64,000 bases of DNA from Zootoca vivipara. Taxonomy: Eukaryota. Both the position numbers and the translations under genes were made by a program. Positions 38,378-47,869 of the stretch are shown here, piece after piece. Position 1 is the stretch's first letter. Each line of letters starts with the position of its first letter. The stretch spans positions 114,824,001 through 114,888,000 of the forward strand of contig NC_083277.1 in the NCBI RefSeq assembly GCF_963506605.1, read 5' to 3'. Below the pieces are notes generated by a model that saw only the letters and a program-made list of their open reading frames with translations, searched no databases and was not told where the DNA came from.

Positions 38378-38896
38378 AACACTGCAGCGTCGAGGCCAGG
38401 AGCCGTGCGGCCTCTGAGGCACCTCGGCTGCTCCTGCAAAGAAGGCCGCTTCCTTGCTCCAGGCCTGGCGGTGGCGGGGTGGCCCTTCCTCCTCGGGTCC
38501 TGCCCTGCGCTCCTCAAGTGGCGCAGCAGAGATGCGGTGGGGCCGGCGGTCATGGGTGTCCCGAGTGGGAGGGCCTCTGGCTTTGGCGGCGGACCTGCTG
38601 GTGGCAGCGACGGGGCGCTGGGCTGGCAACGGGGCCTGCTGGACTTGGAGCTCGGCGAGGCCGGCGGAGTCACGCTCCCCTTGCAGCAGCCTCCGCTGGG
38701 CAGGGAAGCGGAGCTGGGTGAGCTGGGCCGGCCCGTGCGCCTGGAGCTGAGCACCGCCGAGCATCGGCGCCAGGAGGAGAGCATCTGGAGCCACCAGAGG
38801 TGAGTGACTCGGAGCCAGGAGCCGTGCAGGCCGAAGGGAAGGGGGGGCGGCAAAAAAAATTGCGCCAGGGCGCTGGGTACCCTTAAAACAGCCCTG
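38378..38896. mobile_element. One-ended hAT element carrying a captured gene fragment
   Basis: Right end ...ttaaaacagccctg followed by gcagtgtt; left junction gcagtgt+aacactgca (palindromic footprint). Confidence 0.7.
38405..38799 (+). pseudogene. GALNT12: Captured GALNT12-like exon 1 fragment (polypeptide GalNAc-transferase N-terminus/stem)
   Basis: LGELGRPVRLELSTAEHRRQEESIWSHQ resembles GALNT12 LGARGEAVRLQLQGEELRLQEESVRLHQ; degenerate signal anchor upstream; ends at donor AG|gtgagt (38800). Confidence 0.7.
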
Positions 38897-40065
38897 GCAG
38901 TGTTTAGGTTCCAAGTTGTTTGAGTATCAAGGCATTTGAGAACCAAGATACCACTATAGTCCATGCATGCATGGTCTTTCCGTACTGACAGTTAAGGTGC
39001 TTCCAGATTGGAGATTTGTTGTGGAATCGTGGCTGCTCATACATGAACAAGGTTGTTGTTTTTTTACACTATCCACATAATGTCATCATTATAATAATTC
39101 CAGCTTGTATCTTTAAAAAAACAAATAAGCATTTCCTCTTAATGTGGAAAATCCGTTCAGTAAAGAAAAAGAAACATCAGTGATGCAACTTCATTCATTG
39201 CTTGTATGGAAGCTTGTCAATGCATTTTGGAGGGGAGGTTGCCATGAAACATTGGTGAATGGCCCCAGTCAACCAAACTCTTACTTCACACCTGAGCACA
39301 ACCTAGCCATTTTGTTCCAAGCAGCCGAATGTTTGCTCTTTTGTTCCATGTCTGGAATGGAATTTCAATCCAGCAAATGCAATTGGTATTCACAGTTGTT
39401 CTTGCTTTCAGGTTCCAAACAATGTGTTATTGATTACCTCCCCCTTCCATTATTTGCAAAATGATTTCTTTGCATTGAAATGAATGTTGCGGACTAATCA
39501 AATGACAACGTAATTAGGGCGAGGAAAAGTGTGGTGCTGTATTTCCGTGAAGGGGAGGGGAGCCTGTGTTCCTCAAGATATTGTGGGGCTCCAACTCCTG
39601 CCAGCCCCAGCTGGCACCGCTAATTAAGACTGGAGTTGCAATCCAGCCACCTCTGGAGGGCCACAGTTTTCCCACACCTGCTGCGCATAGCCATTGTGGC
39701 TAGCAGCCAGCCACTGACACAGCCTTGTCCTCCATAAATTCATCCGATCCCTTTTGAAAGCCATCCAAGGGCTAATCCACAGTTCCGTATGCTTCACTGT
39801 TTTTTCCTGGGAAAACCTACAGTTTAGGGCTGAATCGGGGGGGGGGGGGGACAGCAATTAGGTTTTCTGCAGACTGCTGTTTGTTCCAATTTAGCATTTT
39901 CCAGAGGGAAGCAAAGGCAAACCCACTTAGGCCCGTGCCTAGAATGCACAGGACAAGCAGAAGCGTGCATGAGCCCCAAGCAAGTTCCAAAGTTTAACTA
40001 TGTGCCGTATGAAGGAAGTACTTCCTTTTCTTGGTCCTGCTTCATTGATGTCCACAAGTGGACCT

Positions 40066-40206: not shown

Positions 40207-40649
40207 CGGTAAGTTCTAGTAGAGTTTGGAGAAAGGGAGGGCAAACATTTCTCTACCCACTTTCTCAGTGAGAACCTGGAGGCTGAGGAGAAAAACGAAT
40301 TGATCATCCCATTTCATGTTAGCTACACACACACACACACACACACGATTTTCAGTTTTATACATTTCAATACTTTTACAGTAACTAACATTTCACTTGA
40401 TTTCCTTCCCCTCTTTCTGCAGTTCCTTAAGTTCATTTTTAGTATTTTCTGCAAATTAGTTTTCTGTACACCGCTTAGAGGTACTTTTTTTTAATACGTG
40501 GTGGAGCACCATAAAAATTAAACCCTCCTCCTGCAAGAGACGCAAAAGAAATCATTATTGTTGTTGCTGTTAAATTAAATTTGTATCAAATAAAAAGCAG
40601 GACGTTTTACGCCACAAGCAGACCGTTTACGCCACAAGCAGCCTGCATT

Positions 40650-40834
40650 CGCAGCGCTCGCCTCCAGGGGGCAGCGTCGCGACAGGCCGAGCGCGCGGCC
40701 TGCGGCCTCGGGTCACGTGACAGGCAGCACAGCGACTCCGGAAGCGGAAGCGAGGCTTCGGGCATGCAGCACGAGCTCCCCCCGGCGGAGACGACGGGGC
40801 TGAGGGGAGGGGAGCCGGAGAGAGACCCAGGCAG
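40650..40834 (+). promoter_or_regulatory. MFSD5: MFSD5 CpG-island promoter and non-coding exon 1
   Basis: CTCF-like cctccagggggcagc (40661-40675), GTCACGTGAC (40712-40721), tandem ETS ccggaagcggaag (40738-40750), candidate donor GCAG|gttggt at 40835. Confidence 0.7.
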
Positions 40835-43717
40835 GTTGGTAAAGGGAAGGGCCATGGGGGGAGTTCGGTAGGGCGGCTAGGGGAGGGGAATCCCCCCCCT
40901 TCGGCCAAAGGGTCGGAAGCGAAGAGGGCTGGTGGGGGGGAGAGGCGAATTCGTTCGCGGGGCAGGAATGTGGGGAGGGTGCCCTGCAAGAAGCGGGGGT
41001 CGGGGAAGGGCATGTTGCTTCCTCCCCTTCCCACTCTGGAAATGCGGGTGGAGGGTACTCTTGCATTAGGGCTGCCACCTTTGTTCTGGGGCGCGATTTA
41101 TTTCCCTTTCCCCCCCAATCCATTACAATCTTACAACTCACACACAACATGAAATTGTAAATCTGCCTGTGCCTGACTCCGCTACATGACGTTTCACACA
41201 CCTGCCTTTGCAGAGGTTCCCTAACTTGGCAGAGAGAGGGACAGAGAGAATCATAGAATCACGTGGAAACCTGGCCAGATGGGCGGGGTATAAATAATGA
41301 TAATAATTACTATTATTATTATCATAATCATGTATGTAGTCGGAAGGGACCCGAGGGTATCATAGAGTCCCAACCCGCTGCAGTGCAGGACTATGCCGCT
41401 GTCCCATAAGGGGATGGAACCTGCAGCCTTGGTGTTATCAGCACCTCACTCTGACCAACTGAGCTATCCAGGCTGACCTGGATAGAAAGAAAAGACCTGA
41501 AATACAGGGCAAACGATCAACACAGGACGTACATTTTGCATTGAAATAGGGACAATCCTGAATTATACAGGACAGGTGGCAACCCTAGCTCTGCATGCAA
41601 CCATCTCCCCTGGTTGGTGGTGTGGAGAGAACTTTTCTCTGTTTCACCTCAGAAGTGCCGTGTGTGTAGGGATTTGGGCTATATGGGGAGGAGGTGTATC
41701 GAAGCCTGCCCCCCCTCCTCAGGCTTAGTCAAAGTGTCTTCTGTTGCTGAGCTGCTGTGGCTTGGGAGCTAATAGCTTAACCTAAATCTAGTACACACAG
41801 TGTTTTGAGGACACTGTGTTGGCATTGCCTGCCTTAATTTACTTAGGGTGCACACTTGCCTCCTGTGAGTAAGCCCCATTGAGTTCAATAGGACATACTT
41901 CCCAATAGTAATAATAGTAATAATAATTTTATTATTGTACCCTGTCCATCTGACTGGGTTGCCCCAGCCACTCTGGATCCACAGGATTGCGTTGTTAGTA
42001 CAGTATATTTTCTGTAACTAATACTTTTGAGTTAATAAATCACAGTTAAAAAACAAATAACTTAAGGTACTATTACATGGATTTAGGCAGTGCTATTTTT
42101 CCAGAAAATGAGGTGCCGGAACTCACTATGAACACCTCCCTCTTTCTCTTAGAATGGCAATGGCACCCACCTAAGAGCTGCCAGAACTCACCTGAGCAAT
42201 GCTGGAACTGAGTTCCGATGAGTTCTCCCTTAAAAAAAGCACTGATTTTAGGATACCAGACTTCCACGCTTTCCTAAATCTGATTGCAAAAGCCAAATAA
42301 GCCCATTCATGCTTTGTTTAGATCTAAACTGTGCTGCTCCTTTAAAGCTTGGGGAAATAAAATACTGTACTCTTAGTTCCTCTATTCTCCTAATACTATT
42401 GTGAAGCAGGTGGCTGTTCTGTTCTAAAGAAAATCTCCTACTACAGGCATTGGAGATGAATCTGATGAAGAGTTGAGCATAAATTGAAAACCTGCATAGG
42501 ACAGGTGTCTGACCAGTAAATAGAGAGAGTCACATTTTTAGGGATCAGTGATAATTAGTTCTACAATGGAAGGTTATAGAGGCAAAACATTCGGGGTTTG
42601 TGAGGAAACATTATGCGTTTTCAATTGCTTTCTGAAGTATTGAGTTTAAACTGCTCTTTCTGGTTTTCATTGTTAATATTTGCATAGAGGTAAGGTGTGG
42701 GTGTTGATCTTTATCGGGTTAACATGAGAGCTAAAAGCTCCATAGCCGAGTTGTAGGAAAGTTGTAATTCAGGATTGCCACAATAATATTACACTCTCAG
42801 ATATTTTTAGTGGCTTTTGCCTCCTGGCTGTAGAGTTATTACAGACATTTTAATGATAGGCTGCAAAGGAGTCCTTGGGAGACAGTTTTGTAGTTCAGCC
42901 AAAAAGTTACTGTACTCTTGATTGCTCCCAAGCTGTGTGGTGGAGGAGATGGCTAGTTTAGCTGGTTGAGCTTGTTTTTCACTGCTCATATGGGAAGCAT
43001 TTGAAACAGCATGAGGAATACTTGGCTGTAGCAGCCTCTAGTAACCTCAGGCTCACTCAGTTTCTTTTTCTTAGCTTTGAGGAGGTGCAAGATAGTTCCT
43101 CGGGGGTCTCCTTGCTAGCTTTGCCTTTTCTTGCTGCCCCTGCCATATCTCCCTTTGGAGCCAATCCCTTTGGCTCTCACTATCCCGGTGGTCTTTACAC
43201 AGTAGTTTATCTGAGCTACTGAGAGGGCTGCTTTACACTTAAGTCTCTGGACTCTGGAGCAATCACTTCCTTGCAGTTCCCAAAAGTTAAGGTTCAGTTT
43301 TTAAAAAATGAAGTTATGTTTCAGGCAGCGGAGAGCATTGCAACAGATCTTACTTTGCATATAGTGTGGGACGCTGATCAAGGTTAGTATGCATTATTTT
43401 TGTCTCTTCTTTGACTCTGGTATGCGGAAAGTAATTGGGCATCATGAAAAGTCTCAACTTATTTTAGGGTGGGGGTAGGCATGGATTGTATCTCTCATGG
43501 TGGTGGGGGGAAAATCTTAAAGTAATTTGGCTTTAGCAGTAGAACAAATCTGTCTCTTCCCTTCTCACTTGAATGCCCAGCATTGCTCCCCATTCCTCTA
43601 TCCTGGGGGTGGAGAGCCTGCGGCCCTTCACATATTGTTCGATACTTCATCTCTGACCATGCTGGCTGGGAGTGATGCCAGTTAGAAGTCCAGGACAATC
43701 TTGAGGTTAGGTTAGGT

Positions 43718-46262: not shown

Positions 46263-46510
46263 TCTTTAGTGTGCGGGGTGTGTGAGTGTGTTAAGACTGC
46301 ACAAAGTGTGCACTGACTACATACAGTTTGTGCCAAGCTTTTTCAGAAGTGTAAATGCACCACAGATAAACTCTGTTCTGCCCACCTCCAAGTCTTGCTG
46401 CAAAGCTGCCTAGTGCAAATTGTTACATCCGTACCTCTTGTGTTCTTCTCTTTCAGGTGTGTTGGGAGCAGGTATCGGGAGATGCGATGCACACGATGAT
46501 TTAGAACACC

Positions 46511-47869
46511 ATGCTGGTCACTGCCTATGTTGCTTTTGCCTTCCTCCTGCTGATATGCATTGGCTTGGAGTTCTCTGCCTGCCGTTCCAAGATCACCGGC
46601 AGGTCTTGCTCCAACCCAGCCTTCCTGCGGTTCCAGCTAGACTATTATCAGGTCTACTTCTTGGCCCTTGCCGCTGATTGGCTGCAAGGACCTTATCTCT
46701 ATAAACTGTACCACCACTACCACTTCTTGGAGGCTCAGATCACCATCATCTACGTCTGCGGCTTTGCCTCCAGCGTGCTGTTTGGGCTGGTCTCCAGCTC
46801 CTTGGTTGACCGCTTGGGCCGTAAGAAATCCTGCATCCTCTTCTCCTTGACTTACTCCATCTGCTGCCTCACAAAGCTCTCCTGGGATTATTTTGTGCTC
46901 ATTGTGGGAAGGATATTAGGGGGGCTGTCCACTGCCCTGCTCTTTTCTGCCTTCGAGGCGTGGTACGTCCACGAGCACGTGGAACGCCACGACTTCCCGG
47001 CCGAGTGGATCCCCGCTACCTTCTCCAAGGCAGCTTTTTGGAATGGCATCATCGCTATCGGAGCCGGCGTGGTCGCCAACGTCTTTGCAGAATGGCTGGG
47101 GCTGGGCCCGGTGGCCCCCTTCATGGTCTCCATCCCCTTTCTCATGCTGGCAGGTGTCCTGGCGATGAAGAACTGGGATGAAAATTATGGCAAGAAGAGG
47201 GCTCTCTCGAGGACTTGCACTGATGGCTTGAAGTGCCTCCTCTCAGACCGCCGGGTCTTGCTTTTGGGTACCATCCAGGCTTTGTTTGAGAGTGTCATCT
47301 ACATCTTCATCTTCCTTTGGACTCCTGTCCTGGATCCTCACAACCCACCCCTGGGCATAGTCTTCTCTAGTTTCATGGCGGCCAGCATGGCAGGCTCATC
47401 ACTCTACCGCGTCGCAACCTCCAAGAAATACCACCTGCAGCCCATGCACATCCTTTCCCTCTCAGTCCTGATGGTTTTCTTCTCCCTCTTCATGCTGACT
47501 TTCTCTACCAACCCTGGGCAGGAGAACCCTTCCGAGTCCTTCTTGGCCTTCCTGCTCATTGAGCTGTCTTGCGGGCTCTACTTCCCTTCTATGGGTTTTT
47601 TGCGGCAGAAGGTGATCCCCGAGAAGGACCAGGCAGGTGTCGTGCACTGGTTCCGCGTCCCGCTCAACCTGCTGGCATGCCTCGGCCTGCTGATCCTCCA
47701 CGACAGCGACTACAAGACAGGCACCAGGAACATGTTCACCATCTGCTCTGTCATGATGGTGATGGCCCTTCTGGCCGTCGTGAGCCTCTTCACGGTGGTC
47801 CGTAACAATGCAGAGCTCAGGTTGCCCAGTCCACCTGGTCAAAGCGAGGTCTCTTCTCCTGAGCTCTGA
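46511..47869 (+). CDS. MFSD5: Major facilitator superfamily domain-containing protein 5 (molybdate-anion transporter), 452 aa
   Basis: MLVTAY.AF..LL...NPAFLRFQLDYYQVYFLALAADWLQGPYLYKLY; multi-TM; accATG; acceptor at 46456; next to ESPL1. Confidence 0.97.
   Translation: MLVTAYVAFAFLLLICIGLEFSACRSKITGRSCSNPAFLRFQLDYYQVYFLALAADWLQGPYLYKLYHHYHFLEAQITIIYVCGFASSVLFGLVSSSLVDRLGRKKSCILFSLTYSICCLTKLSWDYFVLIVGRILGGLSTALLFSAFEAWYVHEHVERHDFPAEWIPATFSKAAFWNGIIAIGAGVVANVFAEWLGLGPVAPFMVSIPFLMLAGVLAMKNWDENYGKKRALSRTCTDGLKCLLSDRRVLLLGTIQALFESVIYIFIFLWTPVLDPHNPPLGIVFSSFMAASMAGSSLYRVATSKKYHLQPMHILSLSVLMVFFSLFMLTFSTNPGQENPSESFLAFLLIELSCGLYFPSMGFLRQKVIPEKDQAGVVHWFRVPLNLLACLGLLILHDSDYKTGTRNMFTICSVMMVMALLAVVSLFTVVRNNAELRLPSPPGQSEVSSPEL

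Follow-up and report, generated by a model that had tools for sequence, protein, structure and literature searches.

The window, by which we mean the whole 64,000-nucleotide stretch of Zootoca vivipara DNA analyzed here (NC_083277.1, positions 114,824,001 to 114,888,000), very probably contains a broken copy of a non-autonomous hAT subfamily that carries ~550 bp from the start of GALNT12. We regard this cargo as likely acquired in a single event, when DNA repair or replication switched template, and as having spread to ~30 sites, likely mobilised in trans by a hAT transposase. The copies are likely passengers, methylated and non-coding, and GALNT12 would be one cargo of a lineage that repeatedly takes up CpG-rich gene starts.

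The copy family, its parent gene and its carrier

Searching the genome with the insert from the window, we obtained 33 DNA matches, which comprise one TIR-free parent and 29 copies. Merging all searches gave 31 family loci, spread over 15 contigs; GALNT12 sequence is clear in 30 of them, and the other is a right-end fragment. This count is a lower bound that is near saturation, as judged by a left-junction motif with 25 matches (control, 1), 24 of which fell at loci already known. Both hAT ends are kept in 24 of the 31 loci, with lengths of 548-1242 bp (mostly 800-960 bp). The 8-bp target-site duplications (TSDs) of these two-ended loci are exact in 18 cases, have one mismatch in five and are lacking in one; all are different, and the flanks of the copies are unrelated to one another. 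The TIRs are short, with CAGG(G/C)CCG ends, and imperfect beyond ~9 nt. Short TIRs and 8-bp TSDs are the marks of a non-autonomous hAT element.

The sequence-only reading had proposed a Pack-type hAT carrying a piece of GALNT12 exon 1, and had predicted that BLAST would return one GALNT12 parent and dispersed hAT-ended copies. Both expectations held: there is one GALNT12 parent, and 23 of the 24 two-ended loci have an 8-bp TSD, each distinct. By the definition given in the accessible part of an animal survey, a Pack-TIR has both TIRs around an interior of 100-5000 bp and a single parent at ~90% identity or more with a length ratio of 80-120% (PMC8277862). The first describes 24 of the 31 loci, though not the window copy taken alone, and the second describes the family, whose cargo and parent agree at 89-96% of aligned columns. 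Of the five long copies, three align over 530-537 of 547 nt; the window copy aligns over only 406 nt (74%), below the 80-120% ratio in the portion of that survey available to us (PMC8277862). Several copies with distinct TSDs, the mark of a multicopy Pack-TIR, were also found. The definition further asks for a parent without transposons within 100 bp and excludes intronless retrocopies of multi-exon genes; the family fits most of it and is a genuine multicopy Pack-hAT whose parent can be named.

That parent lies at G000:C8:77.80 Mb (L018/L021), on a contig other than that of the window. It has no transposon ends; its 10-kb stretch, searched for the family TIR only, contained none. Exon 1 matches GALNT12 best (E 2.5e-16, vs 3.8e-12 for GALNT4), corresponding to the stems of human GALNT12 and GALNT4, and exon 2 also matches GALNT12 best (E 9.2e-29, vs 1.6e-22). 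These two matches bear out the earlier suggestion that the insert resembles the GALNT12 stem. The same reading had remarked that a stem segment was missing from the insert, and the parent indeed reads on through that segment. The gene is multi-exonic, with its own donor after exon 1 and more exons across ~27 kb, and has none of the deletions found in the copies. A scan of 64 ORFs in its surroundings gave GALNT and retroelement domains only. Ty3/Gypsy-type retrotransposon ORFs (L074:6624-9998 and L026) are found 6-20 kb upstream of the gene. One of the GALNT12 introns contains, 23 kb from exon 1, a 180-bp MITE that ends in the same hAT terminus and belongs to a subfamily other than the carrier (L023:9064-9245).

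The GALNT12 cargo starts 201 nt before the ATG. In the five long loci (L020, L028, L044, L066 and L070), it stops inside exon 1, ~30-50 nt before the true donor; after it, the long copies have a short scrambled filler and then the carrier arm, which is whole in all six less-deleted loci. A GALNT12-free carrier family has the same left and right arms around a different interior. The donor-bearing motif of the right arm had 31 matches, and of the 30 fetched, 28 have a TIR and none has GALNT12 sequence. No host parent for this arm was found among those 30 loci, the two TIR-less ones continuing into the same subterminal arm. Six carrier copies (L239-L244, C14:28.49-28.65 Mb) share the same right flank at ~30-kb spacing and form a tandem segmental array rather than separate insertions.

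The GTGAGT that follows the cargo in the window is carrier DNA, not the donor of GALNT12; a later 37-nt junction deletion brought it up against the stem. The sequence-only reading was thus right that a gtgagt follows the insert and wrong about its origin, which is an arm shared by GALNT12-free elements. What it took for intron-like DNA after the donor is likewise carrier sequence. Its argument for DNA-level capture, that the donor had been retained, fails, because the cargo ends before the real donor.

The left junction is identical in all copies that extend to it. The long form is present at six loci and the 37-nt junction deletion at 20 of 31, while 19, 17 and 19 copies share losses of 22, 25 and 12 nt, respectively. 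One shared junction and shared deletions are explained by a single capture event and a succession of subfamilies. In a tree of 25 copies and the parent, from which six short fragments were left out, one branch (94/81) sets apart seven copies that differ at their left end. Support in this tree is otherwise low (1 of 23 branches starred), so the order of the subfamilies rests on the shared indels. In L054 and L056, other DNA has taken the place of the right half: a GC-rich tandem-repeat element in L054 and an LTR-like stretch in L056.

The window copy and its surroundings

The insert at 38387-38896 is CpG-rich, as had been noted from the letters (GC 0.71, CpG o/e 0.66). It lies within a Tc1/mariner-type MITE (Table 1) whose inverted arms are 24 nt long (37934-37957 and 38935-38958) and which has 2243 candidate loci genome-wide. 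In 11 of 11 other fetched copies of this host MITE the hAT site is empty, mostly reading GCAGTGTTTGGG. The hAT-type right end that had been read at 38896 was confirmed, and an 8-bp target copy adjoins it; the window copy is one-ended only, and relative to full-length copies it lacks the left TIR and ~300 nt of the left arm. Over the 406 nt that align, identity between its cargo and the parent is ~93%.

Table 1. Features of the hAT insertion and of its host element in the window.
Feature	Position	Strand	Details
Host Tc1/mariner-type MITE	37934..38958	+	~500 bp when empty; TA target duplications; received the hAT insertion
Left copy of 8-bp hAT target site	38371..38377	+	GCAGTGT, last base lost; agrees with the right copy and the empty-site sequence
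Palindromic addition	38378..38386	+	9 nt, reverse complement of target site and flank; likely hAT hairpin footprint
Short filler at repaired junction	38387..38390	+	Based on comparison with full-length copies
GALNT12-derived cargo	38391..38798	+	5'UTR and part of coding exon 1; six internal gaps
Equivalent of the parent's start ATG	38532..38534	+	Frameshift in the signal anchor; stop after 72 codons
Carrier right arm	38799..38896	+	Apparent GTGAGT donor at 38800-38805, subterminal GCGCCAGGGCGC motif, hAT terminus ending CCCTG
Right 8-bp target-site duplication	38897..38904	+	GCAGTGTT; adjoins the hAT end at 38896

A palindrome (38371-38386) marks the left boundary, its centre lying precisely where the element used to end; of ~64,000 window positions, 5 have an odd-centred palindrome with 8-nt arms. 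The exact one-base offset would be expected from the chemistry of Hermes/RAG hairpins. According to the accessible text of a study of hAT excision, the transposase forms a hairpin on the flanking DNA, which is then opened and end-joined, leaving a footprint (PMC5499845). The palindrome in the window fits such a flank-hairpin footprint as far as that text describes it, with the difference that the event here was one-ended and joined the flank to the interior of the element (PMC5499845). The loss of the left end was therefore likely a later, one-ended transposase cut followed by repair. No clean hairpin footprint was found in the inspected flanks of the other one-ended copies. Contigs of organisms B and C (runs X13 and X14) extend over the host MITE and right flank and leave the hAT insert uncovered, and such contig gaps are no evidence for dating the insertion.

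The window holds several other features. At 40600-40950, ~1.8 kb downstream of the insert, is a CpG island that likely contains a first coding exon; it may be linked to an ORF with an MFS_5 domain at 46505-47866, which we take to be of the MFSD5 type. Long ORFs with a Claudin_2 domain (54562-55563, plus strand) and with a HAD-hydrolase domain (56898-57629, minus strand) lie further on. The region at 28950-29800 (GC 0.66, CpG o/e 0.5) contains a palindrome of 17 nt, at 29255, and is possibly another GC-rich mobile element, and inverted arms of 108 nt, 95% complementary and 1137 nt apart, occur at 34439-35791.

Coding potential, decay and the route of capture

The long reading frame of the window copy had been described as open from a GTG at 38405, possibly a mutated ATG, through a degenerate signal anchor into the stem. 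The frame is indeed open, and already from 38387 through the stem peptide, but such openness is expected by chance: it recurs in 125 of 300 dinucleotide shuffles and in 14 of 22 copies. The GTG falls in the 5'UTR, the parent's ATG maps to 38532, and the supposed anchor is off-frame 5'UTR, the real one being in the ATG frame. We found no match to the open frame in PDB or Pfam at E up to 10. The frame is patched together from 5'UTR, off-frame and in-frame sequence, and given how often shuffles and copies are open too, we rejected it as coding. The ATG frame itself shifts after ~28 codons, in the signal anchor, and meets a stop at 72 aa. Across the family, frames are broken and no copy extends past exon 1, as a functional GALNT12 paralogue would.

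In the 30 copies, transitions were found at 565 of 3041 parent CpG positions vs 262 of 8980 positions elsewhere, an enrichment of ~sixfold among related, non-independent copies. Mean non-CpG divergence from the parent is 3.8%, and frameshifts and stops vary from copy to copy. This pattern fits DNA that would be methylated and decaying neutrally, the methylation being read from the CpG decay. Not every copy need be silent, however: a 370-nt contig from run X5, which we guess to be RNA, fits copy L006 at 19 of 19 diagnostic sites (10 for the next best copy). Copy L006 lies between LTR-retrotransposon remnants (L120-L123), with one retroviral envelope-like match below the cut-off, so read-through is the likely source of this contig.

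The specificity of the X5 contig for L006 might be taken to mean that some copies function, whether as mobile CpG-island promoters, as antisense or small RNA against GALNT12, or through a short membrane-anchored stem peptide. The position of the window copy ~1.8 kb upstream of an island that likely starts an MFSD5-type gene would suit the first of these, and the last could draw on L011, which has the longest parent-frame reading among the copies (102 codons). The CpG decay, the differing frameshifts and stops, the likely read-through at L006 and the lack of a match to the window copy among the X5 contigs listed all speak against it, and we consider such functions unlikely.

For the capture itself, we considered DNA-level template switching the likelier route, based on the microhomology at the left junction and on the intron DNA in a sister cargo. 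The left junction sits in a GCT common to carrier and parent, and a 3-nt microhomology is weak support by itself. Neither poly(A) nor spliced exons nor variable-length TSDs were seen, as retrocopies or transductions would have; the copies have TIRs, and their TSDs are of a fixed 8 bp.

Alternatively, reverse transcription of the mRNA's 5' part could have supplied a patch for a break in the carrier, or the piece could have been spliced in, before hAT spread. The cargo is wholly inside the presumptive first exon and spans no splice junction, and in the parent the sequence before its left end is a pyrimidine tract that ends in GAG, all of which suits this route. It is nevertheless quite improbable: poly(A) and an exon-exon junction are both absent, the cargo's right end is inside the exon, and in a sister cargo an exon and its donor are accompanied by two separate intron pieces, the second with 93-96% identity. 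Splice capture at the left junction was ruled out by base count, the junction being an exact GCT overlap where a clean splice would leave one G fewer. Although the parent is nested among the copies in the midpoint-rooted tree, the notion that GALNT12 exon 1 was exapted from the transposon, or that the copies are segmental duplications, is next to impossible given an exon that matches human GALNT12 and GALNT4 stems, a parent without TIR or deletions, and copies with unrelated flanks and distinct TSDs.

Under capture by template switching, the order of events that we infer from the observed parent, cargo limits, cargo-free carrier, TSDs, shared deletions and CpG decay would be as follows. The middle of a pre-existing GC-rich carrier MITE of ~650 bp would have been replaced by GALNT12 sequence, joined through the GCT microhomology on the left and the scrambled filler on the right. 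This long form would then have spread, and a derivative with the 22-, 25- and 12-nt deletions and the 37-nt junction deletion would have spread further, a side branch swapping its left end. One copy would finally have landed in the Tc1/mariner MITE of the window, where a later transposase cut at its left end and repair would have left the hairpin footprint and an immobile, one-ended remnant.

Sister cargos and comparison with known systems

The lineage to which this family belongs is wider and has taken up CpG-rich gene starts repeatedly, GALNT12 being one of them. The right terminus motif has 161 matches at ≤1 mismatch (control, 0), and 30 sampled terminus loci enclose many different GC-rich interiors with 8-bp duplications. 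In L116 (also L125, and L127 in part), two TIR-free CpG islands, from C10 and C5, are fused. The C10 parent (333 kb) is likely a first exon, with an ATG, a donor and the start of an intron; a BMAL-family bHLH exon follows 12 kb downstream. The other island lies at C5:15.96 Mb. L145 and L146 contain the same BMAL-family exon with a second intron piece from 500 bp further on, which indicates that intron DNA was captured in this lineage. In relatives of L104, the cargo is a stretch of at most 298 bp taken from immediately before a PDE4 exon (C11:40.53 Mb); the terminus is present at 28 of the best 30 loci. At a first look this piece had 753 candidates and may be present in hundreds of copies. For the cargo of L115, no clear parent was found among 47 matches, of which five odd ones were inspected.

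The mobilising enzyme is likely a hAT transposase acting in trans. Part of a hAT transposase, its 3' end, is present in L146 (C11:701.6-704.9 kb), and related broken elements with a Dimer_Tnp_hAT domain have CAGGGCCGG ends and 8-bp TSDs, one of them carrying a sister cargo. These remnants share the first 9 nt of the terminus only and have no similarity to the carrier arms. An intact transposase with exactly these ends was not found among the 150 candidates scored of 386, nor was the family TIR near the best 30 Pfam hAT loci, and nine transposase-bearing stretches gave no support for the carrier arms as the transposase's own leader. As a side observation, L146, L223 and L221 are hAT elements with transposase remnants and GC-rich, host-like cargo at the left end; in L146, the BMAL-family exon cargo is nested in a different hAT.

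Pack-MULEs typically fuse pieces of several genes. Cargo GC is 0.75 here, and fused pieces occur in L116 and L125. Like rice Pack-MULEs as presented in the accessible text, the GALNT12 family consists of non-autonomous TIR elements that brought GC-rich gene pieces to unlinked sites in multiple copies; unlike them, it is a hAT with short TIRs rather than a Mutator element with TIRs >100 bp, and its cargo is vertebrate CpG-island DNA (PMC5861414). The family works like a Pack-MULE and is not a member of that group.

Among animals, the consulted portion of the 100-genome survey lists 370 Pack-TIRs, only four of them multicopy and none in Anolis, and includes Pack-hAT-N8_XT of Xenopus tropicalis, with 291 bp of CAPSL 5'UTR (PMC8277862). 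Its 12 supplement files contain no GALNT12 entry, and its conclusion was that genes captured by vertebrate cut-and-paste transposons almost always stay single-copy. As far as that portion describes the multicopy Pack-TIRs, the family resembles them in being a non-autonomous hAT with a GC-rich 5' gene piece, a parent on another chromosome and distinct TSDs, and its breakpoints, with microhomology on one side and filler on the other, resemble those of Ssk-FB4 (PMC8277862). By the same partial account, it differs in having ~30 copies rather than 3-5, coding sequence in the cargo, a cargo-free progenitor and a graded deletion series in the same genome, and, for the lineage, several cargos, some of them fused (PMC8277862). 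Within lizards, hobo_AC and its non-autonomous families in Anolis carolinensis, in the available part of their description, likewise share ends around very different interiors, incorporate genomic DNA and recombine between elements; the filler described there is genomic DNA that consists mostly of older transposon fragments, whereas here the cargo was traced to named host gene starts (PMC3014272). Within the openly accessible literature searched, the family was unreported, and it may already be deposited unannotated in Repbase or Dfam. What is new relative to known cases is the copy number and the serial, fused CpG-island cargos.

Repeated capture of gene pieces by such elements is a frequent finding in plants, with few reports from vertebrates. 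The harvesting and fusing of gene starts is supported for this lineage, and a regulatory role is putative. Whether the lineage is a full vertebrate counterpart of Pack-MULEs is more doubtful, though possible: it would serially take up CpG-island gene starts (GALNT12, a BMAL-family clock gene, the upstream region of a PDE4 short form and others) and fuse them in tens to hundreds of copies, some of which might serve as mobile promoters or regulate their parents through RNA. For gene annotation, the copies are a hazard, since they can be mistaken for first exons in CpG islands, complete with a splice donor. With the parent, the cargo-free carrier, ~30 graded copies and several cargos on the same terminus in one genome, this lineage offers an amniote test bed for the mechanism of capture (template switch vs RNA), the bias toward CpG islands and the fate of promoter DNA that has been moved.
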